From a virus, in the IMG/VR virus record IMGVR_UViG_3300025174_000005: 64,000 bases of DNA. One strand, 5' to 3'. Shown piece after piece: positions 19,495 through 43,637 of this stretch. A program made the translations under genes and the position numbers. The number at the start of each line of letters is the position of its first letter. The first letter of the stretch is position 1. The notes under the pieces are model-generated. The model saw only the letters and a program-made list of their open reading frames with translations, had not been told where the DNA came from and made no database searches.

Positions 19495-19495
19495 A

Positions 19496-19726: not shown

Positions 19727-19737
19727 GTAATATCTCC

Positions 19738-20274: not shown

Positions 20275-20353
20275 AACTATGTCTCCTTAATTCTATGTAT
20301 AATAATAGCTAGCTATAGTCCGAATTACTTAGCTTGGATTATAGAACTCACTC

Positions 20354-27173: not shown

Positions 27174-30100
27174 CTAACATATTCCAAAAGTACTACACGG
27201 ATCTACGGTATCTCCACTAAGTCCACTTAATACTTTGTTTGGTCCTAATGCGGCTTCAAAATGAAGATGTGGTTGACCAGGTGCTCCTGATACCCCTGAG
27301 CGAGCTACTACTTGTCCTTTGATAATACGTACTTTTTCACCGCGTCTAATGCGAGCCATAGTGGTTGGATCAAATTCGTAGTTCTGTAAGTGAGCATATC
27401 CAGCAGCAGTGCCATCATCATGATTAATAGCTAACCAGTTTCCATATCCCCTACCACTAGAACCTATCTGAGTACCTAGGGCTTCTACATATCCATCTGA
27501 AATTGCACGTATAGCTGAGCCCTCAGGAACACCTATGTCTATGCCTTGATGAATATGATCTCCTCGGTTAACACCGAAGGAGCTAGTGGTGGGTCCATTG
27601 CCTGGACGCACATACTGACCAGACTTAACGGGTACGGGTTTAGACGTATCAGCGGGTTGTTTAGATGTAGATGGAGGCAATGATTTAGTACCTCCTCGCG
27701 CACCCTGAGGAGCCAACTCCTCATTATTGGTATTGGGTTGTTTACCCTTATACTCATCCTCAGCTTGCTTACCAGCTTCTCTTATTTGTTTTATTTGTTG
27801 AGTAAAGTCATCACTAGATGCATTAGGTATATCATCTCCACCAAGGGTAACTACGGTACCCTGTCTATGACCTGCTATACCTGCAGTATATTCTCTACCT
27901 CTAAAGTTAAGAGGTGCTATAATAAGTGAATATTTACTAGATTGCCAGTATTCTATTGATAAGAATATACGATCAACTACTAGCCATACTAGTATATCTA
28001 GTACTAGAGATACTGCGAATTGTACAGCTGCCACAGGAGCACCAACACCCGTAGCTGCTTCACCTACTGCCGTAGCCTTAAGAACCACACTGCCTGCTTT
28101 AATTAGCTGTATAATGTTTTTGCCCGCACTAGTTGTTGTCTTACCAGCTTTGATCATCTTACCAAGTGTATTTAGACGCTTGGCTCTAGCAATAATGTGT
28201 ATCATGCCTTTGATTTTATTTAGGGCATCGCCGCCAGATTTAGAAAATTTATTAATAAGATCTTTGCCTTTAGATAAGGTAGATGTAGTAGGATTTTCAA
28301 AACCGTCAACAATGGCTGTTGCTTGAGCTGAGTTAGCAGTTTGGAATAGTTGTTTTGTTTTATTTAATGTATTGCCTGCCTTCAATAAGGTATTTTTGAG
28401 TTTAGCAGCACTATGTGCTAACCATGTAGTAACCGCATTTCTTACAACAACAGTAGCACCTATGGCTGCTATGCCCACTAAATAGTTAGCCCATAACCTA
28501 TCACCTTTTACAGCACAGGCTATATCAGGCGTAATATCTGTAACAAATCCCGTATCAAATCCAAAGTGGTGAGTAACTGCTTTTATATCAGCAACACCAT
28601 TCATCTCTACATATGAATCGGCTAAGTAGAATTTATCACATGGGAACGCCCACGGTGTACCCATAACTAATAGGCTTCCTTGATACATCTCTCTTGCAGA
28701 ATCACGAAGTAATGATCTAGTTATCTTGATAGCTTGTCTATGTGCAGAACTGAGTGGCCAACCATTAATGGTATTGTTAATTAAATCTTTAATTCCACCC
28801 CATATACCAGCTGTAAGAAAGTTTAAAAACAAATTAGGTATACCAAATCCAGCATGATCCCAAGGGTCACTAAACTTAGTAGCTAAGAATCTAGTATCAA
28901 CTACTTGGTTCTTGCGATATTGAGGGAAGATGGCGCTATCTATTACTTGAGGTTCTATTTTAGGTTCACTGTCAGATACATACCATACAGCGTGCATATC
29001 TGTATAAACAAGATCATTATTAACTTGTATGTCATTAGCTATAATATTACCCGAGGTAAATATATGAGCTTGAGAAAAGGTTTTGATTTTATATGCTACA
29101 GGTAGCCCAAAACGAGGGTCATTGATGTAAGCAGGATTAGGGTCGGTATTAGATACAGTTGTGCTTCCTGGAGCAGTTTGAGCATTCTGAGCTAGTGTTT
29201 GGTTAAGCTCTCTACCGCGAGCTATAAGTGATTGCTCCATTAATACTTTTTCTAGTTGTGCACGGACTTCATCTGTATTGGGATGATCAATATTACCGTT
29301 AAATATGGGTTTATATTTTTGATTTGTTAATTGTTGTAATTCTACTTCCTTTAGGATAATATCATTAGCAAGTAATGTCATTGCAACATCTGAAATAAGT
29401 ATGTTTTGAGTGGATTGAATCATACGTAGTGAATTGAGGATGGTCCGAGTTAAATCTTTAATTCTTTGAATATCTTTAACACCTACTTGACTAGTAGATG
29501 TTTGGGTTACATTTATATTGTGTTCTTTATTATTTTGTATGTCCTTAGAGCTAACTCTATGATATGCATACCTAAAGTCATAGTATCCTTCTCCAAAGAA
29601 AAGGGTTGATCTATATTCAAATGGACGTACTTGTAAGTAAAAGTTGGGGCTTGTTTGCATACACAGGGTCATAACATCCCATGGGTTCTTATTGAATATA
29701 AACATATTAAGTTTATGGCCACCTGAACGAAGGAAGTCCTCCTGTGTAGGTGTATCTTCCTTCTTAGCTAATCTGGCTACATCAGCTGGTGAATATATAT
29801 TCTCGCCTATTTCACCATAAAAGGCTTTAGGATCTGTGGATGCTAAGTAGAAACCCCTTAGGGGTTCTATTAAATCCATAGTTGTCCTTCCGAAAAAAGT
29901 TAAATTATCAAAGTTAATAGCTACACTTGCTAATATTAGTTGATCTGGTAATGGTATTCCTTTAGCATTTATTCTTTCTAGTGTTTCTTGCATGGATTGC
30001 ACTAAAAATCGTTTATTGCTATTTACTTGAGCTTTCATGGCATTCATTATTGGTTCTGGATATACGGGCCTACCGAAATGTACAACTTTCCAGCCCTTCC

Positions 30101-33100
30101 CTATTAGGGACATTGATTGACCAGCTGTTGATTTGCTGAGTGCGTCTTTTAAGTGTACCCAGAAATCTCCCATAAGAGTTTCAGCCATGTCACTTTCATC
30201 TTCAGCACTAGCTGCTCCATAGGGCATCATCATATTAACCATGAGATCTCTATGTTCATATAGCTGTATGTCTTTAATTTTGGCATTAGGCTTAGCAACG
30301 GGGAATATATTCATTAATTCTCTACCATCACCTTCGGCTATAACCTCTACTACTTCTCCTACCTCTGTAGCTACTACCGTTCCATTAAACACAACGGGCA
30401 ACCGCAATCCATTGGAACCATATCCCAATCTAAAATGTATGCGTATACCTGGGCGTATTGCTGTTTGCTCCCACTGGCGCGTGCGCTGTTCATTTATGTA
30501 TTCTATTATCTCTCTATTAGGAATAAGATAAGCTAGATATGAAGCGCCCAACCATGCAAAGTAATCACCTATCATAGCAGGGAATCCACCTAATGCATTA
30601 TTGTTTGCTCCAGCATTAGTGGTTTGAAGAACATGTCTACCGTAATCAGCACCTAGATCTTGCCATCCACCCTGTACCATACTGTGGTATGCATTAGCAA
30701 ATGTGAATGTAGCTATATGCACTGGTTCTCGACGATCCATACGGACCGTAGCATCCATAAGAGAATTTAGGCTAGCAAAGATAGGTATGCATTTAAACCA
30801 CCATATCATTGGTCCTTCATCGAGTAACTGAAGAACATATGTAGGGAATGCTAATACCAATCTTCCTGTTTGATCATAGGTTAATAAATCATGGTAAGCA
30901 GCTCTATCTGACTTACCAGGTTTATATCTAGGAACAGGGGCTGTTGCAGCTATAACATCATTTACTGTATTGGATTCTGTATCTGTCTCTGCTAATATCT
31001 GTCTAACAGATCTGTTGGGTATTTCTATTTTCATCTGAGCGGAATTATTATCTCCATGTGTACCACTCTTTGTTTGCACACCACCAGTTAACTGAGCATT
31101 GGCCTTAAATTTACCTGATGCACCAAGAATATTATTAATATATGCTTGAACTGTAGGTTTTTTAAATGCTGCTCCTGATAGTACGTTACCTAGACCATCG
31201 TTATATGCAGCAAGAGCTTGCTGATAGTCTCCCTTAGTTGCTTTAAGTTGTAATCCTAAATACTTAGCCGATAGGCGTATATTGATTTCTGGATCGTAAA
31301 GCTTATTAAGTAATCGCTGGTTGTTGATTTTCCCCGTATTACTAAATGTATTAATTATATTGGGATCACAAGCAGCCTTCTCCTCAGCTCCAAGAAAACC
31401 ACCTAGAGCTCTAGATGCATCACATGCAGCGGCAGGTCCTAGCTGACCCATACCCACATATCCAGTTGGGCTCTTAGCATGAGCCTGAAAATTACTCTCT
31501 GTTCTAAATAATTCTGTTAGTACAACTGGATCTATATTATTTTCTTTAGCAGCAGAAACAATAGTATCTTTTATTTTTGACATTTGTAATTCATCTTGCA
31601 CCGAATTGTTAGCATAAGTATCTATAGCTCTTGATGGTATAGATATATTATTGGTTTTAGATTCTATAGCTACTAGTGTAATAGGAGTTGGTTTAGTTGA
31701 TGCTGGTAAACCTAAAGATGTTTCTATTTTACCTGTTATACTTTGAGGTACTGGTTGTGGCCCTAAAGCTGCTGAATTAAATCTTTCTATTTCATCTAGT
31801 TTAGCTTTAAGATCATCTGCCCTAGCATTAAATATATGCTGCTCAAATTTATCTATACGCTCTCGCTCTTCTTTAGTGGTTGCATTTGCTTTTGCTTCTT
31901 CTAGTATCTTACGAGCTTCAGCATCTGTCTCTTGAACTAGCCTAGCATTCTCACTAACTCCTATTGATGTTGTATCTATAATGGAGTTAACCATTTCATT
32001 CATAGGTAAACCATCATGATGCGGATGAGTAATTATACTCCCGTATTTCTGCCTACCTATAGCTTTTGCTGTCATCCTATCGTTTGTACCATCAGGATTA
32101 ACCGAGAAGTTAGAAGCATAGGTCATTTCTAAACCATCGATCTCAGCATCATTGAGAGCATCTAATATGTGTGCTTGAAGTAATCCTACCCATGTAGTTT
32201 TATCCTGAGATAGTGGCCATGCCATATAGAAATCAGGATCAACATACAAACCATTATTTTCTTTAATATGTCTAACTAAGATAGCTCGTTGTTCTGTAAA
32301 CTCAGGAACTAGTTTGATGATATCAAGTAATCCCTGACTAAATTCTTTAAAAGTAGGTAATTGAAGATCTGGATAGAGTTGCAAGGTTTGCATACTCTCT
32401 AAAGCCATCTCTATTAATTCTTTATCTATACTACGACCAGCACTTTCAACATTGGTATTGTTTTCTAAGTACTTCTTAAATTCATCTGATGCAAAGAAGT
32501 CGCTTTGAAATACGTGTTTAACATCTTTAAATGCTCTTTCGGCGCGATTGAAAGAAGCGAAACTCATAGTAATCTGACGCCAGCCAGGGAAACCCTGTAC
32601 GTCATCCATAAGGATGACTTGTGGTACTACATATCTGATACCTAATAACTTTAAGATAGGATGATCTATGGTCATAAAACCATCGTTTATTTCAAAGCGA
32701 TATTCTCTAGCATATTTCTGAGCATTCTTAAATAAGTTTACTAAGTCTGTTATGAGATTATTGTCATTATTAGCAATTAAGGTAACAACTATTCTATCTT
32801 CTTGTGAACCCATAAATTGGTGAGGGGCAATCTCTTGATCGTGCATACGCATAAGAGTAATCTGATTTTCCATTGTTACGCTCATCTGCGTGATAATAAT
32901 AGGTTCTTGTGTATTTAAGGTTAAGAGATGATCTGAGATACCATTTTCTATCCATTGAGTTCTTAATTTCTTTAGTGCATCTTCTAGATCTGCGACTTGT
33001 TCTCTAGCACGGGATAGTTCTTGTACACGAAGTAATGCACCTATGCGCTTACGTTGCTCTAATGCCTCTTCTGCAACTAGACTAAAGGATATCTCACTAT

Positions 33101-34286
33101 TCCACTGTGACTTAAGCAATTCTGCTCCACTAGCTATATCGTCCCAATAAGAAGTTAATTTGGCATTATTGGGATTTGTACCTAGTGGTGTATGTTTAAA
33201 TGCATTGCTTTCTGGATCTATGGTATGTTTAATTAGATTAGCTGTAATAGATTTGTGATAGTTTGTCCAGTGCCATCTAAATACAGGCCATATAAATGCA
33301 TCTGTAAAAAAATGTACGTGAGGCATATATACTTTATAGTTAAAAGCAAGCATAGATAAACGCACCTTTAATGCTTGAGGTAATCCAGGTACGGTGCCTA
33401 TTTGCATACTCATTAATGTAATGGCATCTATTTCATAATCTATGGTTAGCTTACTATTGAGCACTGGTAAGAAGGGTGTCTGTCTGAATTGAGCTACTAA
33501 TGAAGCTAAACAATTAGGATCTCCGAATACTACTTCTTCACCACTATCTCTTTTAATCTTTTTAACATTACTTGCATTACCAAATATCTCATTAAGGTTA
33601 GAAAAAGTTAATTCTATCTCTATGCGAATATCAGATCTACCAGCAAAGTGTTGTTGTGCACCAGGCGTACGAATCGTACTAAGAGCCGTTGTTTGAAATA
33701 CTTTATTGACAGATATATTCTCTGGTGGTATATGAAATATACTATCTCCTAATCTAAAATAAGTAGGATCACCCAGTAGGTCCTCTCTATCAGGAAAATC
33801 AAATGCCTCAGGAAAGTCATTGTTTTCAAAGAGAGCTTCGTAATTTCCACTAAAACCACCTATATTTAATCCTAATGTTTCCTTACCTTCTTGGCGAAAC
33901 TCTCGATTGGCTTCTGCAACTATTAATTTACCACCAAGTCTCTCTGCATTAGTTATTGCACTTTGAACAGTAGAAATACCATTATCAGGCATGGCTACTA
34001 ACTTACTCACAAAGCCCACAGCACCCATAGCTTCTTGTCTAAAGAGGGGTAATATAACTGGGGAGAAGAATTGATCGCGAGTAAGAGATAAGTTGCTTTC
34101 GCCATCAACTATATCAGATACATATTGTCGTGCTTTGCGAACCAGTTCTTGATTGGGATTTTGTTTTCTAAGTTCTGGAAGGATAGTAATAAGAGCATTA
34201 CCACTATCAATTATCTTAAGAAGATCCTTACGATCTTGACTGGTAAGTAATTTAGATGCTTCGTTAGGATTAGTATCTCTAGACAT
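27174..34286 (-). CDS. Giant baseplate hub/tail lysin: tube-like domains, lytic transglycosylase, hub, C-terminal M23 peptidase
   Basis: SLT: TESNF, GMGQL, NIRLSAKYL, ALAAYNDG (~31120-31570). Hub: RPGIRIHFRLGYG. M23: HQGIDI, YAHL, HLHFE (~27190-27620). Confidence 0.85.
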   Translation of the reverse strand: MSRDTNPNEASKLLTSQDRKDLLKIIDSGNALITILPELRKQNPNQELVRKARQYVSDIVDGESNLSLTRDQFFSPVILPLFRQEAMGAVGFVSKLVAMPDNGISTVQSAITNAERLGGKLIVAEANREFRQEGKETLGLNIGGFSGNYEALFENNDFPEAFDFPDREDLLGDPTYFRLGDSIFHIPPENISVNKVFQTTALSTIRTPGAQQHFAGRSDIRIEIELTFSNLNEIFGNASNVKKIKRDSGEEVVFGDPNCLASLVAQFRQTPFLPVLNSKLTIDYEIDAITLMSMQIGTVPGLPQALKVRLSMLAFNYKVYMPHVHFFTDAFIWPVFRWHWTNYHKSITANLIKHTIDPESNAFKHTPLGTNPNNAKLTSYWDDIASGAELLKSQWNSEISFSLVAEEALEQRKRIGALLRVQELSRAREQVADLEDALKKLRTQWIENGISDHLLTLNTQEPIIITQMSVTMENQITLMRMHDQEIAPHQFMGSQEDRIVVTLIANNDNNLITDLVNLFKNAQKYAREYRFEINDGFMTIDHPILKLLGIRYVVPQVILMDDVQGFPGWRQITMSFASFNRAERAFKDVKHVFQSDFFASDEFKKYLENNTNVESAGRSIDKELIEMALESMQTLQLYPDLQLPTFKEFSQGLLDIIKLVPEFTEQRAILVRHIKENNGLYVDPDFYMAWPLSQDKTTWVGLLQAHILDALNDAEIDGLEMTYASNFSVNPDGTNDRMTAKAIGRQKYGSIITHPHHDGLPMNEMVNSIIDTTSIGVSENARLVQETDAEARKILEEAKANATTKEERERIDKFEQHIFNARADDLKAKLDEIERFNSAALGPQPVPQSITGKIETSLGLPASTKPTPITLVAIESKTNNISIPSRAIDTYANNSVQDELQMSKIKDTIVSAAKENNIDPVVLTELFRTESNFQAHAKSPTGYVGMGQLGPAAACDASRALGGFLGAEEKAACDPNIINTFSNTGKINNQRLLNKLYDPEINIRLSAKYLGLQLKATKGDYQQALAAYNDGLGNVLSGAAFKKPTVQAYINNILGASGKFKANAQLTGGVQTKSGTHGDNNSAQMKIEIPNRSVRQILAETDTESNTVNDVIAATAPVPRYKPGKSDRAAYHDLLTYDQTGRLVLAFPTYVLQLLDEGPMIWWFKCIPIFASLNSLMDATVRMDRREPVHIATFTFANAYHSMVQGGWQDLGADYGRHVLQTTNAGANNNALGGFPAMIGDYFAWLGASYLAYLIPNREIIEYINEQRTRQWEQTAIRPGIRIHFRLGYGSNGLRLPVVFNGTVVATEVGEVVEVIAEGDGRELMNIFPVAKPNAKIKDIQLYEHRDLMVNMMMPYGAASAEDESDMAETLMGDFWVHLKDALSKSTAGQSMSLIGKGWKVVHFGRPVYPEPIMNAMKAQVNSNKRFLVQSMQETLERINAKGIPLPDQLILASVAINFDNLTFFGRTTMDLIEPLRGFYLASTDPKAFYGEIGENIYSPADVARLAKKEDTPTQEDFLRSGGHKLNMFIFNKNPWDVMTLCMQTSPNFYLQVRPFEYRSTLFFGEGYYDFRYAYHRVSSKDIQNNKEHNINVTQTSTSQVGVKDIQRIKDLTRTILNSLRMIQSTQNILISDVAMTLLANDIILKEVELQQLTNQKYKPIFNGNIDHPNTDEVRAQLEKVLMEQSLIARGRELNQTLAQNAQTAPGSTTVSNTDPNPAYINDPRFGLPVAYKIKTFSQAHIFTSGNIIANDIQVNNDLVYTDMHAVWYVSDSEPKIEPQVIDSAIFPQYRKNQVVDTRFLATKFSDPWDHAGFGIPNLFLNFLTAGIWGGIKDLINNTINGWPLSSAHRQAIKITRSLLRDSAREMYQGSLLVMGTPWAFPCDKFYLADSYVEMNGVADIKAVTHHFGFDTGFVTDITPDIACAVKGDRLWANYLVGIAAIGATVVVRNAVTTWLAHSAAKLKNTLLKAGNTLNKTKQLFQTANSAQATAIVDGFENPTTSTLSKGKDLINKFSKSGGDALNKIKGMIHIIARAKRLNTLGKMIKAGKTTTSAGKNIIQLIKAGSVVLKATAVGEAATGVGAPVAAVQFAVSLVLDILVWLVVDRIFLSIEYWQSSKYSLIIAPLNFRGREYTAGIAGHRQGTVVTLGGDDIPNASSDDFTQQIKQIREAGKQAEDEYKGKQPNTNNEELAPQGARGGTKSLPPSTSKQPADTSKPVPVKSGQYVRPGNGPTTSSFGVNRGDHIHQGIDIGVPEGSAIRAISDGYVEALGTQIGSSGRGYGNWLAINHDDGTAAGYAHLQNYEFDPTTMARIRRGEKVRIIKGQVVARSGVSGAPGQPHLHFEAALGPNKVLSGLSGDTVDPCSTFGIC

Positions 34287-34288
34287 AT

Positions 34289-37200
34289 TTACCTTTTATG
34301 AAGTAGATGTAGTAATTCATCTTCAACTGTTTCTTTGATTTTCTTGCGGTGATCTTGTGATGTGATATGAATATTGGTTGGCATTTGAACTTGAGATAGT
34401 GATTGACCAACCAATTGATGTAGTTGATCGGGGTCTATATCTCCTCTGTCGCGGGCCCTAATGCGCACTTTATACGCATTACCTCCCTTACCTGGTACTG
34501 TCTCATCCATAATACGTGTTGTGCCACCTACTGATGGACTAGCTGGAGGTGTGTAAGAACCATCGGGCATAGGTGTCATGTCTGGACCAGGTGCTATCAT
34601 ATCTGGTTTGAGTTCACGTTGACCTAGTTGTAGTGAAGAAGAAAGTAATCCCGCACCTACGACAGCTGTAGCTAAACCACCTAATCCCCATCGCGCGGAA
34701 CGAGGTAAGCGCATAAAAGCATTCTCTATCATATCAATAGCTTTTCCTGGCTTAGGACGAATTGTTTCAGCAGCCTCAGCTACTCCAGAGGCTGCATGAG
34801 CCCCTACACTACCAGCAACTTCTTCTGTGATATCAGCTGCAGCAGTGAAGCTACCCATAAGATCTTGTAGCTTAGCTCCAGAACGTATCTGGCGTAATCT
34901 TTCTGACATAGGTAGATGAGCGTATTGTTCTGTTAGATTACCTATTAGAGAACTTGTTTGTTGATAGTGGCTTTCTATTACACCTTGTTCTGCGCCATGC
35001 TGAATACCTCTATCTAATCTACGTCTCCATAAATCTGCTTCACTAATAATAGTTTTTGCTTTAACTTCTTCTATAGCTGATTCAGGAGCTATACCTTCTA
35101 CAAATGCCTGGGCTTGAGCAGAACGCAGTTTCTCATTTAGCTCTTCTGCTGTACCTACCATTTTAAACTTAGCTCCGTGGGTTTCCATAGACTGTAGGAT
35201 TAACTCATGCATACCTCCAGTTTCCCCAAGGGGTTTTACTTTAGCATAGTATCCTACTCCACGACTAAGAGCATATAGCTTCTCTTGATTCTGGCGCATA
35301 AGTTCTGCAGACTTCTCAGGTATGGCTGCCCATGGACCTGCTTCAAGTGAAGCACCTGCCGATAAGATCTTTCTACGACCTGGCTCACTCGTAAGAACGT
35401 CCATAATATTCTGGGCTCTAGACGGTGAAGGTATTGCAGTAGCTTGAGGACCTGTTGGTATTGCTGTTATTGGTGTTGTTGTTATTGGTGTTGTTGGTAT
35501 TATTGGTGCTGTTGATGGTGCTGTTGGTAATGCTGTTCGTAGTGCTGTTGATAATGCTGTTGGTAATGCTGTTGATGGTGCTGTTCGTCGTGCTGATGGT
35601 GCTACTGTTGGTGTTGGTATTATTGGTGTTGTGGATTTTATTGTAGATTTTAGATGTGTTGTTGTAATAAACTTTTCTCTAGCTCTTTGCTGTATACTAG
35701 TCATCTGCTTCGCAGCTATATTGTATTGCTCTATACCCACCTGTTCAAATGCTGCAGACTGAGCACTCATTATATCATGTAGTACGGCTACGTCTCTGGC
35801 TGCATACTGGTATCGTTGTTTTGATAGCCTACCACCCCACTTAGATTTTTGTGCTTCTTTAGGCAAGGAAATGTTTAAATATTTAGACGCAAGATATCCT
35901 AGGTTAGATTTACCATACTTAGTTTGACTAAGAACCTGCTCTGCCACCATAGGATCGTATATCTGCCCACCGATTTTATATCCTTCGCCTAATAAAGCTT
36001 TGATATCAAATGGAGCATTTTGTATTATTTTAGGTCTAGAACTAGCGAGGAACTCAGTTAAAATAGATCTACCCTTTTTAGGTAGTTTAAGGAGATCTAC
36101 AATACCAACAGGTCCGCCCTCAGCTGAAAGCTGAAGCAATCTAACTCTCTCTATTGCTTCAGAAAATGCTGTTGTTTCTGTATCTAATGCAATATGACCA
36201 GATGATGGTAGACTCTTAAGGAATTCTTGTAACCCCTTAGCTGTAGTAATACGCTTGTATTGAACTGACTTAGGCTGTAATACTTGTTGAGGCATTGGCC
36301 CAACAAAAGGTTTAGCATAGGATTCAAGAGGGTTTGTAGGTTGACTGGGTAAATTTACAATGTCTTTGGGTGATTTACCACTAGCTAATATTCTCTCATG
36401 CCCTACAAATTGCTTAGCTATATCTTCACGCTGTTCAAAAAGAGCTTGCATTTTAGGTGTGCCATATAGCTCACCAGCTTCGCGATGTTGTTGTATTAGT
36501 TGCTCTATGTTGGCTAACTCTTTAGATGCTTGCGATGCTTTAGCACCAAACTCAGATACTGTTTCTATTTCTGACATACCAGATCTTATATAATCCTGCC
36601 ATGCTGCCATTTGTTGAGCAAAATCTAATGTAGTAGATTTTGCTAGCTTGAGATATGCTTTAGATCTATATCCTGGTGCTTGCGTAGCAGCACGAGTTGC
36701 AATTTTCTGTATTACTTTACGAAATTCATCAAACTCCGCAACCTCAGCAGTATGACCCTTAACTAGTTTTAATATGTCTTCAGAGTGTCTAAATTTCTGA
36801 TAGGAATATATTGCTTGTGGGTGTGTCTGACGCATGTAGGACTCGAATGCTGTTCCAAATACATCAGCTTCTGATAGTTGTGTGGGTAGGGCTGTTTCTG
36901 CAAGAGGAGATATGGACTTAGGACTAAACTGAAAAACTGTTCCCATACCAGATTGTATTTCCCTTTCTCGTTGAGAAAGGGGTCGTAAGACATCCATTGC
37001 CTCCATCTTTTCACGAGACATCACATTAGCAGAAGCCAATTCTTGTGTTAAATCTCTTTTTGCACCAGCTTCTATTATATTACTTGTTTGAGCCAATAAG
37101 TTACGATCTACCTTAGGAGAAGATGTAAACTGAGCTAACCACGAACCCATCATCTTAAGAGGACGCTCGTGTATCTCCCAGGCCATACGCGCCTTACTAG

Positions 37201-38017
37201 AACCAGTCACTACTGTACGGTACCCCTTAAGAGTTTCCTGTACTTCTTCTCCAAAAGAGGGTAAGATTTTCTCAAAGATATGTTGTTCCATAGTATATAT
37301 ATCTTTGATAGTATTAGGTAAGGATATATTAGCACCAAAAGAAGCCTTAAGTAATTGCTTAGTTTTTATGACTACATCTTTGGTAGATGTCTTTTCTATT
37401 TGTTGATATGCTTGCAAGAATTCCTGAACAGATAATTCTCGGTGAAAAAGATTTGCCTGAAGTTGTTTAATTTGATCTAGTGTATATCCTCCACTAGGCA
37501 TTGCACCTGTTACGTCTTGCCATAGCTTCCATTTTTCAGTTCTAGTCATGTTTTCTAGCTGTGTTTGCCAAGAACCAGAAGGAGGTATAATAGTTGGTAG
37601 TGATGTCTTTACAGGAAGACCAGTTAATCCTTCGTGATAAGCAGAAGCGGTAAATCTAATAGTTGGTAATTGTGGACCACCTGTACCACCTATATGACCC
37701 AAACTAATCATTTTACTGATCTTAGATCTAATGCTTACATTATGTGGTGTATGGAGATACTGTCCAAAATAGGATGGTGTGCTTAATGAGGTAGATAGTG
37801 CTCGTTGGATTTCTTTGTGTGTTGTGTAGGTCTGATTAGTAAGAGGAGCAATAAGAATATTCTCTCCTGTAAATGGATCTAGTATAAGATTACTAGATCT
37901 AGTGGTTTGGTTGTGAAGATGCTCGCTCCACGCAGGATTACTAACTGACCTAGCTATGTGAAGAGATTCTCTTGCGCTCTCTTCTCCGTGATTAATTGGA
38001 AAGGGTCCAAATGCCAT
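34289..38017 (-). CDS. Tape-measure/ejection-like protein with an embedded DEDDy 3'-5' exonuclease domain
   Basis: Helical body; ExoI IALDTET, ExoII QNAPFD, ExoIII YAARD at ~35750-36230; Thr/Pro linker; C-terminal hydrophobic helix. Confidence 0.75.
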   Translation of the reverse strand: MAFGPFPINHGEESARESLHIARSVSNPAWSEHLHNQTTRSSNLILDPFTGENILIAPLTNQTYTTHKEIQRALSTSLSTPSYFGQYLHTPHNVSIRSKISKMISLGHIGGTGGPQLPTIRFTASAYHEGLTGLPVKTSLPTIIPPSGSWQTQLENMTRTEKWKLWQDVTGAMPSGGYTLDQIKQLQANLFHRELSVQEFLQAYQQIEKTSTKDVVIKTKQLLKASFGANISLPNTIKDIYTMEQHIFEKILPSFGEEVQETLKGYRTVVTGSSKARMAWEIHERPLKMMGSWLAQFTSSPKVDRNLLAQTSNIIEAGAKRDLTQELASANVMSREKMEAMDVLRPLSQREREIQSGMGTVFQFSPKSISPLAETALPTQLSEADVFGTAFESYMRQTHPQAIYSYQKFRHSEDILKLVKGHTAEVAEFDEFRKVIQKIATRAATQAPGYRSKAYLKLAKSTTLDFAQQMAAWQDYIRSGMSEIETVSEFGAKASQASKELANIEQLIQQHREAGELYGTPKMQALFEQREDIAKQFVGHERILASGKSPKDIVNLPSQPTNPLESYAKPFVGPMPQQVLQPKSVQYKRITTAKGLQEFLKSLPSSGHIALDTETTAFSEAIERVRLLQLSAEGGPVGIVDLLKLPKKGRSILTEFLASSRPKIIQNAPFDIKALLGEGYKIGGQIYDPMVAEQVLSQTKYGKSNLGYLASKYLNISLPKEAQKSKWGGRLSKQRYQYAARDVAVLHDIMSAQSAAFEQVGIEQYNIAAKQMTSIQQRAREKFITTTHLKSTIKSTTPIIPTPTVAPSARRTAPSTALPTALSTALRTALPTAPSTAPIIPTTPITTTPITAIPTGPQATAIPSPSRAQNIMDVLTSEPGRRKILSAGASLEAGPWAAIPEKSAELMRQNQEKLYALSRGVGYYAKVKPLGETGGMHELILQSMETHGAKFKMVGTAEELNEKLRSAQAQAFVEGIAPESAIEEVKAKTIISEADLWRRRLDRGIQHGAEQGVIESHYQQTSSLIGNLTEQYAHLPMSERLRQIRSGAKLQDLMGSFTAAADITEEVAGSVGAHAASGVAEAAETIRPKPGKAIDMIENAFMRLPRSARWGLGGLATAVVGAGLLSSSLQLGQRELKPDMIAPGPDMTPMPDGSYTPPASPSVGGTTRIMDETVPGKGGNAYKVRIRARDRGDIDPDQLHQLVGQSLSQVQMPTNIHITSQDHRKKIKETVEDELLHLLHKR
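35507..35590 (-). repeat. Seven 12-bp tandem repeats encoding T-A-x-x tetrapeptides within a Thr/Pro-rich linker
   Basis: Plus-strand units tgctgtt(gatgg/ggtaa/cgtag/gataa/ggtaa/gatgg/cgtcg). Confidence 0.9.
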
Positions 38018-38033: not shown

Positions 38034-41000
38034 CTACCTAAGTAACATATGTCCATCTTTGCGGATGAACTCACGTATTTGATCTTCTCGTTCGTGCTTA
38101 ACTCTCATATCTATTTGTATATCTGGATTTTCACTGGGTGTATCTTCTACGGTAATAAATAGATTTTCTAAACCCTGCCCTCCAAGTATGTGATGTAAGT
38201 AATCTTTTAAATGTCCGCCGTCTCTAGGAACAAAGGGTTGTATATCAAGTACGCCTTGTCGCTCTGCTGCTTCTACACGAGGACCATAATATCCCATCTC
38301 TGCCATATCTAATCCTTCATTCTTCATAACCTTTATCTTATAGTCTTCTAGATTAGCATCAGGACTCCAACCATGCCAGTCTGGGGGAGGTAGAAAATGA
38401 TTTTTGAAGTACTCTTCTAAATCTGGGCGATCCTCTATGGGCATCCTCCACTTAGCCTCAAGTACTCGTCGCATATTGTGAGGTACTAAGTTGAGTATTT
38501 CTGACCGTTCCTTGGGAGGAGCTTTCATGAATTCAACCATGAACTCTCGTTCACGAGAAGGAATAGCTCTAAATATATCCAGCATTGCGCCATGAGGATC
38601 TACACCATATAGAGTTGTCTTAGCTAGATCTCTATACTGTATCGCTCTAGCTATCTCTTCTGTTAGAGGTATAACTTGTGTTTCTTTACTAAGATCGCCT
38701 AAGCGTTTAGTGTATTTACGTGATATGTGTTCTCTCAAGTGCTTATCTTTACTGGCTATACGCTTGCGGATTTTCCGCAACTGTTTAATATGATGTTTAT
38801 CTTCTTTAGTTTTTTCTGACTTAGCTGTTAGTTGTTGAAGTTCTCGTTCTGTTTTAAGAAGCTCTAATAGATGAGAACCATGGAGTCCACGCCTAAGAAA
38901 ATGTCGTTTATGAGAGGTTAGTCTACGTTGCTCATTCTTACGAGCTTCACCCTGTCCTTCTAATAAGTTAAGTAATCTATCTACATCTATTCCTGTGGTA
39001 TCTTTAATATTACTTATGGCAGCTCCATATAATCTCTGATATTTCATATATCTAAGTATATCAAAGTATTCTTCCGTATCTCTTCTATGTTGTAGTTTAC
39101 CAGGTATGGCGTGAGTAGCCTTAAGATATAAGCTATACGATAACCCAGCTATACCTCCGATAGCACCTAATACACCCTTAGACCTACCCATGCGTACATA
39201 CCACCGCTCTAATGTAGAGAGCGTTCTTTGCTCCAAGTACTTGGCAGCAACGGGACCTGTACGTCCTAAGAATAAACCCAAAGTAGCTCCGCCTATTAAT
39301 CCATGTATAGGACTTTCTGCTGCCCAGCCTTGTATTGCTTGACCTATAATACCTAATGGATTTGTCCAGTTATAGAAGTTAGCACCATATACCATTCGTC
39401 TTCTATAGTATTCTAGCGCTGAATCTGTCTGTAGAAATTTTTGCTTAATTGTACCCACAATTGGTATGGGTATGGTCATATGCGAAAACCACTCAAGTGA
39501 TTTACCTAGACCTATTTCCATTCCACTAAATCTGGCTTGTATGCCTGTTGGTGAGTAGTCGGTTACCTTCTCCTTAGCTACTCCTGCATCCAATAGGGCT
39601 TGCTGTAATTTTCTACCTTGCTCGTCAAATACAACAGCATGCATAGTTTGTAGTGTATCGTCTGCTACTTGAATAAGCGGATCTTTATTAAGTATTACTT
39701 TTATCTTACCGCCTATTGGAGCAAACTGTTGAGTAATCTCTAACGCCTGTAATCCTTCCTTGTCCTTACCTATAGCCGCACGTATTCCCGCTAATCTAAT
39801 GGGATTAGCTAATTCTTCTGTAAGTATTGTTTGTGAATCTATAATCGATTTAACAGTTAATGTATGTTCTTCAACATCACCAGCATACCTAAATCTATAT
39901 GGTGCAAAATTATAACGCTTCTTACGTTTTGCAACTTCTTTACGTATAGCAGCTATCCTAGTTCTTGCATTCTCTATGTTTATTCTATCTTGTCCTTGTA
40001 ATCCTGTTGGTTCTAATACATGCGTAGCATAATCTAAATATGACTTAAATGTTTTAGAATATGGAGCAACATCAGCTAATATCTCTAACCTATCCATAAG
40101 AGGATATTGTTCCATTGATATATCTTGAGGCAATCCATGGATAGAAGCATATCCTGGTCCAGGTAACCTAGCCTCACCCCTTGGCAGGGCTGAATAAGGA
40201 TCCGCTCGATGGAAGTTGATAAAGTAATCTGGCTCAATACTACCAGTTCCAGGTAGCCAGCTTGGTTGTGTATTTAGTAGTGGATTAATTTCCTTGGCAC
40301 GTTCTTCATATCCTCGCCTACTAAGTGCTCGTCTAAATATTTCAGAAAGCTCTCCCATTACAGGTAAATCAGGAGAGAAACCACCTATGTTTAGATCTCG
40401 ATAAAGATAACGCTCTAATGAAGTGTATTCTGGTTGAGCCAATCTATATTGCTCTAATGTCTTATTGCCAACTAAGGTCTTACCTATGTATCCACGAAGA
40501 CCAAATATATCCGCTATAGACTCCTGTTCTCTAGCAAACTGTACACCTATCCCTGCGGGATGAATTAGTTGATCTATAATATCTGGTGTTAATTGATTAA
40601 TATCTGTGACTTCAGATAGGGGTCTTAGGTTCTCAAGTACTCCCTCATCTAATACCCTACCTGAACGTGTGCCTTCATTAGCTTGCGCTAGAGCATCTAA
40701 AACACGTTCTCTGGATACATATCTAGGAGTAGTTCCTTGTTGTTCGGGTATGGGTGCCACTGCTCTTGCACCAGCTTGACGTATATTTAGATTGATGTCA
40801 GCTAATTGATCTGTGACGTGTCCGCTTGTTGTAGGTATGGGTTTTGTTGGACCTGCTCCCGTAGGTGTTGGTTGTAATTGTGTAACTTGTACCTGACCAC
40901 CAGGGGTTACATACCCATATAAGTCCTCATCCCTAACCTTACGAGTAGTTTCGTTTTGTTCCGCAAGGGTATTAAAATACTCCTTAAGTTCATTAACATG

Positions 41001-42611
41001 CATAGGACGTACGGGTTTAATAAGTTGTCCTATGGTAGCATTAACTATTGGTCCATAGAAAGCTGTTGATTCTACTAATGGAGCAGTAAGAGGTGTGGGT
41101 CTAGATTCATAAAACTTCTTTTCCCAGTGATAAGGATCTAGATAATGAGGTAGTGGTATTCCTAAATTTTCTAATGTTGGTAGACTGGCATATTTATAAT
41201 ATTCACTAGGAGGGAAGAAAGCCTCTCTTGGATGTTCATGAGCTCTACGTACCCATGGAGATTGATATGATTCTATTCTCCCACCTCTGAAGAGCTCAGG
41301 CGACATAGCTGCCCACCATCTACCCTTACGTACAGGTTCCCTACCTTTCTCGTAATACTCTTCTAGTTCATCCCTGCTTAAGCCTACGGGTTGATCTACA
41401 AATGGATGTGCTACAAGAGATGTTAATTCTGGAGCAATAGAATGTAAGCGTTTAACAAAGGGGGTTATTCCTGTAATGTCCTTGAGCCATGCTAATCCTA
41501 AATTAGCATGCTTATATCCTTCTGCTAATACATCATATGGAGACGTACCAAATACATCTCTAGATTTAGTGTTTAAATAGTTTAGATAAAATGCTCCTAG
41601 AGCTAGAGGAGCAACGCGGCCAAATACTACATTAAGTACAAAGTCAGCAGGCGAAGACATTGCTCCTTCGCCTAAAGCTAGGTACTTACCAAACGGAAGG
41701 GCTTGGCGTACTTGTTCATTTAGCTTTATGGCCGTACGCATAAAGCCTAAGGATATATCACTAACTTCCCCTGGGTATGCTCTAGCTTTCCATAGCTCTT
41801 TACCTAATCCTCTTACATCTTCCCAGATGGACTGTTGACCAGTGAAGCGTTCACGTATAGTTGACCATTGATTAATCTTAGAACGTTCAAAATAATCCGT
41901 CCCATGTATTAGATTCTTCCAGAATCCATGTTGTTTAACTTGTTGTTGGAAAGTAAAATCAGATAATTCAGGTACAGCCTGACTAAATAGAACACTAAAT
42001 TCTTTAGAATAGGTGCCAGTAAATTGTTCCTCAGTAGATGTTGCACCTACGAAACCACCACGAGTTAGTTTAAAGCCCTTACCAAGAACCTCTTTGCTAC
42101 GAGTACCATATATAGCACCCCTAATATAGATAAGTTCTTCGTCTACATTTTTACTTAAGAAGCGGAGAGAAGGATGTCTTACTGCCTTACTAAGATTAAC
42201 TACAAAGGGAGTTTGTGCTTCCTGTACTGCATGACGCAAGCCAACCATACCAGATAGGATATGTCCTGGCCATGTTTCCTCTAGAACAGTTGTAGCTTTT
42301 TGAATAAATGGATGTTTGAGTGCTTGATATCTTAGAGATTCAAGAAGACTCAGTGGACGCTCAGATGCTTCTTGTATACCGCGTCTGATAGCCTCGGTAG
42401 CAGCCCTAGTTGAAGGACCATATCGTAGTTTGCCACCTTGCTCCAAGATCTCAGTAGTAAATTGCTTAGTTACTGCAGCTGATCTTCCCCGCAACAATAA
42501 AGCAGCTCCTCCTGCTAGGAGGAGCCCACCCATACTCCATTTAAGAAGAGCGCTTCTGCGCTCTTCTGCATCTGGGTCTCGATAGACCCCATATTCTTTA
42601 AACATGGTCAT
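38034..42611 (-). CDS. Tape-measure/ejection-like protein with a degenerate thermonuclease (SNase OB-fold)-like domain
   Basis: Follows the chaperones; several hydrophobic Gly-rich helices; VKSIIDSQTI...IRLAGIRA...LQQALLDAGVA at ~39560-39870. Confidence 0.65.
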   Translation of the reverse strand: MTMFKEYGVYRDPDAEERRSALLKWSMGGLLLAGGAALLLRGRSAAVTKQFTTEILEQGGKLRYGPSTRAATEAIRRGIQEASERPLSLLESLRYQALKHPFIQKATTVLEETWPGHILSGMVGLRHAVQEAQTPFVVNLSKAVRHPSLRFLSKNVDEELIYIRGAIYGTRSKEVLGKGFKLTRGGFVGATSTEEQFTGTYSKEFSVLFSQAVPELSDFTFQQQVKQHGFWKNLIHGTDYFERSKINQWSTIRERFTGQQSIWEDVRGLGKELWKARAYPGEVSDISLGFMRTAIKLNEQVRQALPFGKYLALGEGAMSSPADFVLNVVFGRVAPLALGAFYLNYLNTKSRDVFGTSPYDVLAEGYKHANLGLAWLKDITGITPFVKRLHSIAPELTSLVAHPFVDQPVGLSRDELEEYYEKGREPVRKGRWWAAMSPELFRGGRIESYQSPWVRRAHEHPREAFFPPSEYYKYASLPTLENLGIPLPHYLDPYHWEKKFYESRPTPLTAPLVESTAFYGPIVNATIGQLIKPVRPMHVNELKEYFNTLAEQNETTRKVRDEDLYGYVTPGGQVQVTQLQPTPTGAGPTKPIPTTSGHVTDQLADINLNIRQAGARAVAPIPEQQGTTPRYVSRERVLDALAQANEGTRSGRVLDEGVLENLRPLSEVTDINQLTPDIIDQLIHPAGIGVQFAREQESIADIFGLRGYIGKTLVGNKTLEQYRLAQPEYTSLERYLYRDLNIGGFSPDLPVMGELSEIFRRALSRRGYEERAKEINPLLNTQPSWLPGTGSIEPDYFINFHRADPYSALPRGEARLPGPGYASIHGLPQDISMEQYPLMDRLEILADVAPYSKTFKSYLDYATHVLEPTGLQGQDRINIENARTRIAAIRKEVAKRKKRYNFAPYRFRYAGDVEEHTLTVKSIIDSQTILTEELANPIRLAGIRAAIGKDKEGLQALEITQQFAPIGGKIKVILNKDPLIQVADDTLQTMHAVVFDEQGRKLQQALLDAGVAKEKVTDYSPTGIQARFSGMEIGLGKSLEWFSHMTIPIPIVGTIKQKFLQTDSALEYYRRRMVYGANFYNWTNPLGIIGQAIQGWAAESPIHGLIGGATLGLFLGRTGPVAAKYLEQRTLSTLERWYVRMGRSKGVLGAIGGIAGLSYSLYLKATHAIPGKLQHRRDTEEYFDILRYMKYQRLYGAAISNIKDTTGIDVDRLLNLLEGQGEARKNEQRRLTSHKRHFLRRGLHGSHLLELLKTERELQQLTAKSEKTKEDKHHIKQLRKIRKRIASKDKHLREHISRKYTKRLGDLSKETQVIPLTEEIARAIQYRDLAKTTLYGVDPHGAMLDIFRAIPSREREFMVEFMKAPPKERSEILNLVPHNMRRVLEAKWRMPIEDRPDLEEYFKNHFLPPPDWHGWSPDANLEDYKIKVMKNEGLDMAEMGYYGPRVEAAERQGVLDIQPFVPRDGGHLKDYLHHILGGQGLENLFITVEDTPSENPDIQIDMRVKHEREDQIREFIRKDGHMLLR

Positions 42612-43213
42612 GGCCCTATGTTGTTAGCTCCAAACATCTTTTGGATGATTGCTTCGCGTTCCTGATCTCTACTGCGAGGTGATGGATTATTGACTTCAGA
42701 TCTGATTCGTCTACGATATATATCTTCAGCTGTTGGAGGGGGTTTGAGTTGTACTGGATTGAGCACTAGGTTCTCATGCATCCACTCTGCACGGCTATAA
42801 TGATATAATAGCTCTTGCATAGACATCTTTTTTATTTCCCACAATGGCATTACAAAGTATCTAGCAACTATAGCTTCTATCTTATCTTGAAATGAACCGT
42901 TAGCTTCTAGCTCATCTCTATAGGCACAAAGCAAACTAGTTGCTTTAGGTCCCCATCCTGATGCTGTAAGTATTGCTTCTGATAACCCTGAAGCAACTCC
43001 CATAGGAAGCTCTAGTAAATCTATATCTTTTGGGTATAAAATACATAACTTACATAGTAACTCTTCTCGTTCACACTCATTAGTAAATCCCATAAGAGCT
43101 TGTTGCTCAAATAGCTTAAGAGATCTAAAAATAAAATTCCATTGTAGAATTTTAACTTGGTAGATCCCTCTATATTCAAGTTTCCAATTAAGGATCTGTT
43201 CGGGAGTAATCAT
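42608..43213 (-). CDS. Tail assembly chaperone paralog 2 (extended, GT-like)
   Basis: N-half resembles the 133-aa neighbour (WK..Y..IY...FIFRSL...E...C.L.P); C-terminal extension; located just before the tape-measure-like genes. Confidence 0.65.
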   Translation of the reverse strand: MITPEQILNWKLEYRGIYQVKILQWNFIFRSLKLFEQQALMGFTNECEREELLCKLCILYPKDIDLLELPMGVASGLSEAILTASGWGPKATSLLCAYRDELEANGSFQDKIEAIVARYFVMPLWEIKKMSMQELLYHYSRAEWMHENLVLNPVQLKPPPTAEDIYRRRIRSEVNNPSPRSRDQEREAIIQKMFGANNIGP

Positions 43214-43235
43214 TACATATTATTTTAATTAAGTA

Positions 43236-43637
43236 TTAAAGTGGGATTGGGGGTGGCGCATTAAAACCTGAGACCTCTAGTAATTGTTTAACTATCGTAC
43301 CAGGTATACCTGCTTTTTTACCAATTAGATCTGTTTGAGTAATAGCTGGCCATAAAATCACTTTTGAAGTCAATATCTCTTCAAATAATAATTCATCTGT
43401 CCCAGAATTCTCACTAAACAATCTCTTATATTCAGCTCGGTTAATACCACGCCAGATTATAACCTCATCCATAAAATCCGTAGCATAGATATTAGTATGT
43501 ACTTGTTTCCAATAATCTCTCTGAGCAATAGTTGGACCTCCTGGAAACAAAACCTCCTGTCCAGCTTCATTGTAATACTTCTTAGGTTCTGGAACAACTT
43601 GAGGAACCTGCTCTATTACAGTAGTATCTTCTGACAT
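43236..43637 (-). CDS. Tail assembly chaperone paralog 1
   Basis: 'WKQVH.NIY...IIWRGINRAEYK...KAGIPGTI..Q.LEVSGF'; strong AAAGGAG SD and its own promoter. Confidence 0.7.
   Translation of the reverse strand: MSEDTTVIEQVPQVVPEPKKYYNEAGQEVLFPGGPTIAQRDYWKQVHTNIYATDFMDEVIIWRGINRAEYKRLFSENSGTDELLFEEILTSKVILWPAITQTDLIGKKAGIPGTIVKQLLEVSGFNAPPPIPL

Follow-up and report, generated by a model that had tools for sequence, protein, structure and literature searches.

Enzymes carried in the virion decide the first minutes of a phage infection. To our knowledge, the cargo known from tail and tape-measure proteins consists of enzymes that hydrolyse the cell wall, plus the RNA polymerase (RNAP) of a single Thermus phage. 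In the myovirus Mu, the gene for the DNA circularisation protein N (gp43) lies between those for the tape measure and the hub; N travels in the virion, enters the cell with the DNA, and keeps hold of the DNA ends. It is an end-binding protein and is not known to be an exonuclease. In the Thermus phage P23-45, the virion RNAP gp96 is fused to the tape measure and has been proposed to act at the entry pore during DNA entry (Chaban et al. 2024, PMC10770324), a precedent for an enzyme that is fused to a tape measure and works at entry; that paper does not mention an exonuclease. Proteins that are injected, carry several enzymes, and target host defences ('polyvalent' proteins) have also been documented (PMC5512222, PMC7824862), and a survey of such proteins includes no DEDD exonuclease in its set of domains (Iyer et al. 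2017, PMC5512222). For the Bacillus jumbo myophage 0305phi8-36, a two-gene tail chaperonin was described, and gp146 was labelled a 'hypothetical tape measure', mainly on the basis of tail length (PMC2147016). Our literature search found no paper describing a tail-borne exonuclease.

Here, we analyzed a 64,000-nucleotide stretch of DNA (the window; IMG/VR record IMGVR_UViG_3300025174_000005), the source of which is a large uncultured contractile-tailed phage. All features described below lie on the minus strand. A single open reading frame at 34289-38017, stop codon included, encodes a giant tail-module protein of 1242 amino acids, P0001. The tail module is syntenic with those of 0305phi8-36, WH1, KLEB27-3, MTATph1, and 79 IMG/VR loci. 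Upstream, the gene for a 1525-aa homolog of 0305phi8-36 gp145 (38034-42611) defines the slot; its product is 31-32% identical over ~70% to gp145, WH1 gp096, and MTATph1 CDS0026 (tblastn), and 79 related IMG/VR loci with this type of neighbour were found. Downstream lies the gene for a 2370-aa hub/lysin protein (27174-34286) with SLT (Pfam, 3e-15) and Peptidase_M23 (8e-16) domains, which matches phrog_20474 (4e-143) and, by tblastn, gp147 and its relatives. Two small genes of a single PHROG family (phrog_29362; 42608-43637; 201 and 133 aa) are syntenic with ORF143/144 of 0305phi8-36 and occupy the position of the tail chaperonin gp143/gp144. A prior sequence-only reading of the locus had placed P0001 between the tail chaperones and the hub; the hub gene indeed adjoins, but the chaperone genes are separated from P0001 by the 1525-aa gene. 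The P0001 gene has the gp145 homolog on one side and the SLT/peptidase hub gene on the other, and is part of a densely packed late tail operon.

According to their GenBank notes, gp145 and gp146 of 0305phi8-36 are virion proteins by mass spectrometry, and the slot proteins of WH1 and KLEB27-3 are annotated 'structural protein'. A C-terminal profile was made from the slot proteins of related phages (60 of 64, the window protein not among them); it matched residues 1073-1227 of P0001 (34337-34801) with 38.4 bits and a single-target E of 8.5e-14. Pairwise matches of this C-terminal region were weaker (gp146, E 0.02; KLEB27-3 gp034, E 0.009; L025, the sister locus discussed below, E 0.007), and no sequence similarity to the slot proteins of cultured relatives was detectable outside the C-terminus. 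Judged by gene order and the shared C-terminal sequence, P0001 is this phage's form of the gp146-slot giant virion protein of 0305phi8-36-like jumbo myophages and is presumably a virion component; the shared C-terminal module probably anchors it in the tail or hub. As to the earlier description of P0001 as a tape-measure or virion protein, membership in a family whose prototype is a virion protein holds, but the 'tape measure' label is unproven for the family, because it was assigned mainly from tail length and the slot proteins of relatives are packed with globular enzyme domains. The chain of P0001 is itself broken by a globular enzyme domain and a disordered linker.

The N-terminal region of P0001 (residues 1-575; 36293-38017) is an orphan: it had no match in Pfam or PHROG searches and no homolog by word-indexed search, and the ESM Atlas gave no lead. 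In a phmmer search against 1.84 billion representatives, the 150 matches listed of 1313 all cover the exonuclease domain only, save the window's own 752-aa split form. The exonuclease domain (residues 588-750; 35768-36256) is followed by a Thr/Pro-rich low-complexity linker (residues ~790-875; 35393-35650; T 22%, P 15%) encoded by a 12-bp minisatellite, for which Tandem Repeats Finder reports an array of period 12 at 35452-35632 and whose pattern has 7 matches against 0.03 expected. Residues 876-1072 (34802-35392), which lead to the C-terminal module, had no Pfam match; the last ~60 are predicted to be helical. AF2 modelling, and with it the check on the earlier description of P0001 as helical, covered residues 560-800 and 1010-1242, and in the latter model helices are predicted at residues 1010-1130. 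The C-terminal module comprises a helix, a hydrophobic helix rich in Gly/Ala, a disordered Pro-rich segment, and a small beta-beta-alpha-alpha domain at the end; the model is of modest confidence (pLDDT 64 overall, 75-85 in the end domain), and no structural match to it was found. Both the Thr/Pro linker after the exonuclease and the C-terminal hydrophobic helix noted previously are present, the latter (residues 1107-1130; 34628-34699) being borderline as a membrane helix, with a top 19-residue Kyte-Doolittle window of 1.46.

The sequence-only reading had recognized within P0001 a complete DEDDy domain with three motifs, and profile searches agree: PF01612 (DNA_pol_A_exo1) matches residues 588-750 over profile positions 2-165 of 173 (E 9.2e-22; 78.1 bits, cut-off 23.6), and the domain scores 82 bits in a genome-wide Pfam scan. 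The motifs lie where that reading had put them, the ExoI motif ALDTET at residues 610-615 (D612/E614; 36173-36190), the ExoII motif QNAPFD at 666-671 (N667/D671; 36005-36022), and the ExoIII motif YAARD at 738-742 (Y738/D742; 35792-35806). The full DEDDy catalytic set (D612, E614, D671, Y738, and D742) is present in columns conserved against 25 homologs, and the domain keeps the conserved DTM-type motif and every catalytic residue at ~30-40% identity to active homologs. The proposed comparison with the DNA_pol_A_exo1 fold also came out in favor of this assignment: the AF2 model (pLDDT 88, pTM 0.83) has an RNase H-like alpha/beta fold that Foldseek aligns with exonucleases, namely apicoplast PolA exo, NrnC, Rrp6, and RNase D (probability 1.0, E 5e-13 to 1e-9, query TM 0.6-0.73). 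In the PDB, sequence matches were found to apPOL (1.6e-14) and NrnC/diDNase (1e-12 to 1e-9), with RNase D matching weakly (E 0.009); among the phmmer matches listed, the nearest are PolA and primase-helicase-PolA exonuclease domains, 38-45% identical. PF01612 was the sole match in a Pfam scan of the whole protein, which found no polymerase domain attached to the exonuclease, no HRDC, and no peptidase domain. We rejected an RNase D, Rrp6, or WRN-type assignment, for which HRDC domain(s) would be expected after the DEDDy domain and for which the RNase D match is weak. Nor is P0001 a polyvalent injected protein, which would have several effector domains and usually a zincin-like peptidase; by Pfam and PHROG, it has a single recognizable domain and no peptidase. 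The domain is apparently an intact DEDDy 3'-5' exonuclease of the PolA/NrnC/RNase D type, and is presumably active.

Exact intact P0001 is present on at least 24 contigs of public assemblies (18 counted), and split gene forms on one. Over 22 kb, the window is identical to JGI contig Ga0209642_10000008 except for two base pairs (TG) at 36544-36545, which are absent from this sister contig, where the gene is split into ORFs of 491 and 752 aa. The P0001 protein is identical on all intact-ORF contigs and offers no variation for a selection test.

The exonuclease of P0001 is not one of a kind, because most relatives have an intact DEDDh exonuclease in the same protein. Among 68 related loci that are not identical, an iterated profile found the ExoI region of a DEDDh domain of the DnaQ/ExoI type in 45; the other 23, including most of a short-protein clade, had no exonuclease at the thresholds used. 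Pfam RNase_T matches the slot ORF in 6/50 related records and in MTATph1. The DEDDh domain, frequent but not universal, sits N-terminally in the slot protein. In an alignment of 30 sequences at only 12-63% identity, its D, E, N, D, and D positions never vary and the H is at least 90% conserved; the profile from this alignment matches E. coli ExoI (3e-7), PolC exo, DnaQ, TREX2, and RNase T. Neither a DEDDh domain nor a remnant of one was found in P0001 with three family profiles, the sole match falling within its DEDDy domain, at the generic ExoI motif. Conversely, the suggested check for orthologs lacking the DEDDy domain found PF01612 in 0 of 50 related phage records and not in the nearest relative, so the 'recently inserted module' of the sequence-only reading is supported as a lineage-specific acquisition. 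In a tree of the neighbouring gene, the window is sister to L025, which is without an exonuclease, and both nest inside a DEDDh-bearing clade. DEDDh is missing in the window phage and its nearest relative; the PolA-type domain therefore appears to have been acquired where the lineage was without the usual one. The better reading is that an exonuclease in the gp146 slot is the rule among relatives and that one exonuclease type stands in for another.

Many of the relatives' slot proteins also have an RNAP beta-prime-like core. The two-barrel RNAP core with its DxDGD metal-binding loop occurs in relatives; the loop was found neither in P0001 nor in any frame of the 161-kb record, and the family RNAP-region profile did not match P0001. 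A tape-measure-fused virion RNAP of the P23-45 gp96 type was rejected for P0001, as no two-barrel RNAP core was found.

On balance, we favor the explanation that P0001 is built into the tail and exits with the DNA, and that its exonuclease, an activity selected for in this slot, acts on nucleic-acid 3' ends; these phages would then probably deliver a ready-made nuclease with their DNA. A 3'-5' exonuclease would be a selected function of the slot protein, and the domain providing it in this phage would have come from a family A polymerase gene. We hypothesize that P0001 becomes part of the tail during assembly and, like tape-measure and pilot proteins, departs with the DNA upon infection, and that the exonuclease, tethered via the flexible Thr/Pro linker, encounters the 3' ends of nucleic acids right at the start of infection. 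The weakest step is the preferred substrate, which might be the 3' ends of the incoming phage genome. There, the enzyme could resect terminal repeats for annealing or circularisation, or process and protect the ends; in relatives, it could expose the template for the RNAP module of the same protein. Several points speak against this explanation. Gene position and the 'hypothetical tape measure' label are the grounds for presuming a location in the tail lumen and ejection, and the folded ~20-kDa domain would have to pass the tail tube unfolded or partly unfolded. An exonuclease is not universal in the slot, 23 of 68 loci having none at the thresholds used, and the model of the C-terminal module is of modest confidence. 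Moreover, this sole detectable DEDD domain, beside a DnaE-type replicase without epsilon, leaves room for a replication role.

A rather unlikely use of the same delivery logic is counter-defence or host takeover, in which the exonuclease would destroy host nucleic acids, candidate targets being retron msDNA, cDNA of reverse-transcriptase defence systems, the 3' ends of crRNA or tRNA, short signalling oligonucleotides or their degradation products, and host DNA ends. The domain is as near in sequence and fold to the NrnC and diDNase dinucleotide/short-oligo nucleases as to polymerase exonuclease domains, repeated exchange of domains at a single position is characteristic of conflict genes, and injected polyvalent anti-defence proteins provide a precedent (PMC5512222, PMC7824862). 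However, the DEDDh catalytic core is invariant across very divergent phages that differ in host, which fits a housekeeping step of infection better than an arms race. The closest sequence relatives among the matches listed are polymerase proofreading domains, the polyvalent-protein survey is without a DEDD exonuclease (PMC5512222), and no defence-related neighbour or target is visible.

It is improbable that the enzyme instead works inside the cell before assembly, as a trans proofreader for a DnaE-type polymerase or in recombination, its location in a virion protein being incidental. The 161-kb record does encode a Pol III alpha (DnaE) homolog (E 2e-78), with no PolA and no RNase_T-type epsilon; P0001 has its sole PF01612 or PF00929 match, and the domain derives from polymerase proofreading domains. 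DnaE polymerases can, however, proofread through their PHP domain, and the record is only ~73% complete, so that a separate proofreader may be missing from it. Intact and split gene forms both fuse the exonuclease to the virion-family C-terminal module, the gene belongs to the late tail operon, and the relatives' exonuclease stays in the same structural protein. We likewise give little credence to a non-catalytic 3'-end binding or plug domain, holding, for example, the leading DNA end in the tail, or to a recent functionless passenger: the DEDDy version occurs in one lineage only, with no variation among contigs bearing on selection, and the gp145-family neighbour appears, by eye, to hold a catalytically altered SNase-like segment, but the catalytic residues are retained in P0001 along with the DTM-type motif and are invariant in the relatives' DEDDh domains, neither of which is expected of a mere binding domain.

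More tentatively than the delivery of P0001 itself, a tail-delivered 3'-5' exonuclease could be a required early-infection factor of the whole 0305phi8-36-like lineage, processing the 3' ends of the entering genome by resection or by exposing the template for a co-delivered RNAP. If so, the window phage, with DEDDy where its lineage is without the usual DEDDh, would demonstrate that it is the activity that counts, whichever domain supplies it. A slot exonuclease that keeps its active site across very divergent phages, and is supplied here by an unrelated type, points to a so far unrecognised step of processing DNA or RNA ends as the genome enters, in a whole lineage of jumbo phages. It also cautions against annotating giant slot genes simply as 'tape measure' or 'structural protein'.

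We compared P0001 with known systems. Its gene shares the slot of 0305phi8-36 gp146, WH1 gp095, KLEB27-3 gp034, and MTATph1 CDS0027+0031, preceded by the genes for sheath, tube, chaperonin, and gp145-like protein and followed by the SLT/peptidase hub gene, and these counterparts likewise combine the C-terminal module with an embedded DEDD-superfamily 3'-5' exonuclease. In contrast to P0001, with its DEDDy domain in mid-protein behind an orphan N-terminus, they are 2400-2540 aa long and carry a DEDDh (DnaQ/ExoI-like) domain, and those of WH1 and KLEB27-3 have an RNAP beta-prime-like core where P0001 has no RNAP motif. The domain itself has its best matches, by sequence as well as by fold, among the proofreading 3'-5' exonucleases of family A DNA polymerases (PF01612; apicoplast 5dku and 7sxl; phage primase-helicase-PolA fusions), with the same DEDDy set, but is flanked by the orphan region, the Thr/Pro linker, and a virion-family module, and not by a polymerase, primase, or helicase. 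NrnC/diDNase (7mpl, 9f7d; PMC8492067, PMC11706625) and RNase D (1yt3) share its fold and catalytic motifs; unlike the embedded P0001 domain, they are free-standing enzymes of ~200 aa, and RNase D has HRDC. The gene for Mu N lies between the tape-measure gene and the hub gene of a myovirus, and N acts on genome ends; no sequence link to it was seen in P0001 (Pfam scan, PF01612 only). Finally, P23-45 gp96 resembles P0001 in that an enzyme acting on nucleic acids is joined to a giant protein of the tail slot with membrane-type segments, but in P23-45 the cargo is a two-barrel RNAP and the carrier a siphovirus tape measure, whereas the cargo of P0001 is an exonuclease, in a myovirus.

The 1242-aa protein encoded at window 34289–38017 (minus strand), hereafter P0001, is the product of one ORF in a series of late genes that continues without a break on that strand. 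A Pfam scan placed DNA_pol_A_exo1 (PF01612), the PolA/RNase D-type (DEDDy) 3'-5' exonuclease domain, at residues 588–750 (E 9.2e-22; 78 bits, cut-off 23.6) and returned no other domain, and with PHROGs P0001 matched only the exonuclease portion of a polymerase family. None of the catalytic residues is missing (ExoI D612 and E614; ExoII N667/D671; ExoIII Y738/D742), and these residues fall in conserved columns of 25 aligned homologs. With this alignment as input, AlphaFold2 modeled residues 560–800 at pLDDT 88 and pTM 0.83. Foldseek matched the model with probability 1.0 to the exonuclease of the apicoplast family A polymerase, NrnC, Rrp6 and RNase D, and a PDB sequence search with the domain ranked these structures in the same order. 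The complete three-motif DEDDy domain described in the sequence-only reading is thus borne out on the minus strand by the Pfam match and the catalytic residues, as is the expected DnaQ/RNase H fold by the model. The catalytic residues together with the predicted fold show the domain to be intact.

The remainder of P0001 is less readily assigned. The N-terminus gave no lead in the ESM Atlas. The Thr/Pro linker and the C-terminal hydrophobic helix proposed from the sequence were both located: the linker follows the exonuclease domain at residues ~790–875 and is encoded by a 12-bp minisatellite (window 35452–35632), and the helix, rich in Gly and Ala, spans residues 1107–1130. The same GCTGTT-based 12-bp repeat (as read on the minus strand) recurs at two further sites on the genomic plus strand, ~35864–35876 and ~60471 of the full record, both outside the window. 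About 200 residues without family assignment separate the linker from a C-terminal module that contains the hydrophobic helix. The AlphaFold2 model of this module, of moderate confidence (pLDDT 64), comprises helices, the hydrophobic helix, a disordered Pro-rich stretch and a small β-β-α-α end domain; it had no match in the PDB.

One 180-kb JGI contig (Ga0209642_10000008; L002:10001-10008) matches the window base for base across 22 kb apart from two missing bases, TG at ~36544–36545, whose absence splits the gene into ORFs of 491 and 752 aa, with a TTG start overlapping a TAA stop. Exact-protein look-ups found the intact 1242-aa protein in 33 index blocks (18 contigs counted, at least 24 read), mostly on contigs of 50–200 kb from JGI, ENA and MetaClust, and each of the split products on one contig. 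Metagenome and viral contigs scanned for sequence patterns of the 2-bp indel gave no match. With the intact protein on at least 24 contigs and the split form on one, we regard the intact form as the norm. In intact and split forms alike, the exonuclease remains joined to the C-terminal module.

The window comes from an IMG/VR virus record of 161.4 kb whose completeness is estimated at 73%. PHROG and Pfam matches identified a contractile-tail module with two sheath genes, two tube paralogs, two small paralogous chaperone-like genes, three giant genes (1525, 1242 and 2370 aa), and gpW- and gpJ-like baseplate genes. In tblastn searches, the giants flanking P0001 matched those of the Bacillus jumbo myophage 0305phi8-36, Bacillus phages WH1, Edson and KLEB27-3, and Moorella phage MTATph1, with ~30% identity across long stretches. 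The annotated maps of the cultured relatives have the same gene order: chaperonins, gp145, gp146 and the hub/lysin gp147. The GenBank note for 0305phi8-36 states that gp145 and gp146 were detected in virions by mass spectrometry and names gp146 a "hypothetical tape measure protein". According to Hardies et al., tail length was the main basis for the tape-measure role, and gp146 aligns to its nearest relative over the last ~60 residues only (PMC2147016).

Pairwise similarity of P0001 to proteins in the gp146 slot was marginal and confined to the C-terminus (gp146, E 0.02; KLEB27-3 gp034, E 0.009; nearest metagenomic relative, E 0.007). We therefore gathered 79 IMG/VR loci by alignment of the conserved neighbor gp145 and built a profile from the last 220 residues of the slot ORFs, with P0001 excluded. 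A giant ORF of 750–3300 aa lies downstream of the gp145 homolog in all 79 loci, and the profile, which recruits 60 of 64 sequences, matched P0001 at residues 1073–1227 (38.4 bits; E 8.5e-14 against this single target). Position and C-terminal module together show, at the sequence level, that P0001 belongs to a tail-slot family whose prototype occurs in virions. The virion part of the earlier assignment to a tape-measure/ejection-like protein is accordingly retained as gp146-family membership; the tape-measure label itself is uncertain. Full-length orthologs were found neither by tblastn against 50,697 phage records, where only the exonuclease domain matched, to polymerases, nor by word-indexed searches with the whole protein, the exonuclease region and the N-terminus, which returned P0001 itself and one marginal PolA. 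A phmmer search with residues 1–1200 against 1.84 billion representatives gave, among the matches listed (150 of 1313), exonuclease-domain matches only, plus P0001's own split form, and phmmer of P0001 against 130 slot proteins of relatives gave none.

Several neighboring genes could be related to 0305phi8-36. Two small adjacent genes of PHROG family 29362 (window 42608–43637) lie at the position of its two-gene, frameshift-free tail chaperonin. An adjacent paralog pair at window 44520–46130 matches phrog_9206, "major head protein", a misleading label because the counterparts are gp140/gp141, the tail tube and its paralog. The gp145-family protein (window 38034–42611) has many invariant Gly, Pro, Trp, Tyr and Asp columns, unlike a typical tape measure, and at about 39560–39870 resembles by eye an OB fold of the SNase type whose catalytic positions are altered; Pfam gave no match to it, and neither did a profile of the gp145 family searched against the PDB.

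The slot proteins of most related phages carry an exonuclease of a different type, DEDDh (DnaQ/ExoI-type). That of MTATph1 matches Pfam RNase_T; gp146 contains LDIETTG, and its alignment to MTATph1 reveals an H-x4-D motif. Pfam gave no match to the gp146 region around LDIETTG; its assignment as an exonuclease is based on the family profile (E 7e-16) and the alignment to MTATph1. An iterated profile seeded with the MTATph1 domain detected the ExoI region in 54 slot proteins, mostly at residues 80–300, corresponding to 45 of the 68 non-identical IMG/VR loci (among L009–L087). DEDDh-bearing slot genes of cultured phages include gp146 of 0305phi8-36 (L003:14624-22237), gp095 of WH1 (L005:10593-18140) and gp034 of KLEB27-3 (L006:11004-18308). 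Independently of the iterated profile, the slot ORFs of 6 of the 50 records, and that of locus L082, have a Pfam RNase_T match. Across 30 members with 12–63% identity, the ExoI D and E, the ExoII N and D, and one further D are invariant, and the His of ExoIII is conserved in 90% or more; the profile of this alignment matches E. coli exonuclease I (3e-7), the PolC exonuclease, DnaQ, TREX2 and RNase T. This conservation shows that an exonuclease active site is maintained lineage-wide in the slot protein, and we infer that the exonuclease is a selected function of that protein. The embedded exonuclease noted earlier is confirmed as an observation, but an exonuclease in this slot is not unique to the window phage.

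In the records of cultured 0305phi8-36-like phages, where the protein is annotated as "hypothetical tape measure" or "structural protein", the DEDDh domain is absent from the annotation. The MTATph1 slot gene (L004:12513-19869, CDS0027–0031) is broken up by an IS21-type element encoding a transposase and an IstB ATPase, with the exonuclease in CDS0027 and the family C-terminal module in CDS0031.

As the sequence-only reading had asked, we searched relatives for the DEDDy domain: none of the 50 related records searched contains PF01612, and 17 of these records have a completeness of at least 90%. In a quick neighbor-gene tree (FastTree, fast alignment, midpoint-rooted), for which reason we rely only on the well-supported pairing, the window phage groups with L025, its nearest metagenomic relative (support 0.99), and this pair sits within the large clade whose members nearly all carry an N-terminal DEDDh domain. 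L025 encodes a 1927-aa slot protein that includes the C-terminal module, but neither Pfam nor the family profiles detected an exonuclease in it, and the family profiles found no DEDDh remnant in P0001 or L025. These comparisons show a lineage-specific change of exonuclease type at the sequence level, most simply explained by loss of the DEDDh domain in the window/L025 lineage and a subsequent gain of the DEDDy domain by the window phage. Among the matches listed from the 1.84 billion representatives, the closest DEDDy domains (38–45% identity) belong to small fragments, ~600-aa phage-type PolA, and primase/helicase-exo-PolA fusions, clearly pointing to a family A polymerase exonuclease as the source. 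All 16 long or oddly arranged matches scanned as candidates for DEDDy domains in other virion-type proteins proved to be polymerase, primase or helicase fusions.

A second activity is suggested by an R-x-P-T-x-H ... A-D-x-D-G-D segment in WH1 gp095 (residues ~1941–2013), KLEB27-3 gp034 (residues ~1877–1944) and at least 11 metagenomic slot proteins (L009, L011, L012, L014, L018, L020, L021, L022, L030, L031 and L033). In the PDB, the profile of this region matched only largest subunits of RNA polymerases (phiKZ gp55, 6e-6; archaeal Rpo1N; Rpb1), at the β'-like catalytic double-psi barrel. Across much of the lineage, an exonuclease and an RNAP-like core are therefore combined in the slot protein, and the proteins bearing the segment are likely tail-slot virion RNAPs of myophages. 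Neither the motif nor a match to the family RNAP profile was found in P0001 or the whole 161-kb record, and P0001 thus represents an exonuclease-only version.

We hypothesize that P0001 is assembled into the tail and exits along with the DNA, and that the exonuclease would act on 3' ends during entry. The phage's own genome ends are the favored substrate because the active site is conserved across phages presumed to infect very different hosts, the DEDDh version resembles the ssDNA exonuclease I, the DEDDy version derives from a DNA proofreading domain, and direct terminal repeats are assigned to 6 of the 50 related records. The main rival, in which the delivered exonuclease serves counter-defense or host takeover, shares the delivery step with the favored explanation. 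A role in replication deserves mention since the 161-kb record encodes a DnaE-type Pol III α homolog (1055-aa frame at ~17652–21458 of the record, outside the window) and no PolA, ε subunit or other DEDD domain, which leaves the tail-slot protein with the only DEDD domain found; however, the exonuclease is constantly fused to a structural module within a late tail operon, which speaks against this role. The interpretation of the sequence-only reading is partly supported: it gains from the inferred selection for an exonuclease in the slot, whereas the exonuclease is not unique to the window phage and the tape-measure label is uncertain.

We found no description of a tail-borne exonuclease in the searchable literature, and neither the polyvalent-protein survey (PMC5512222) nor the jumbo-phage survey (PMC7824862), which reports a separate YonO-like RNAP in 0305phi8-36, mentions such an enzyme. 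Only one parallel has been studied experimentally: gp96 of P23-45, in which the virion RNAP forms the N-terminus of the tape measure; an exonuclease is not mentioned in that work (PMC10770324). Enzyme cargo on tail-slot or ejection proteins is thus already known, and what is new here is an exonuclease as that cargo.
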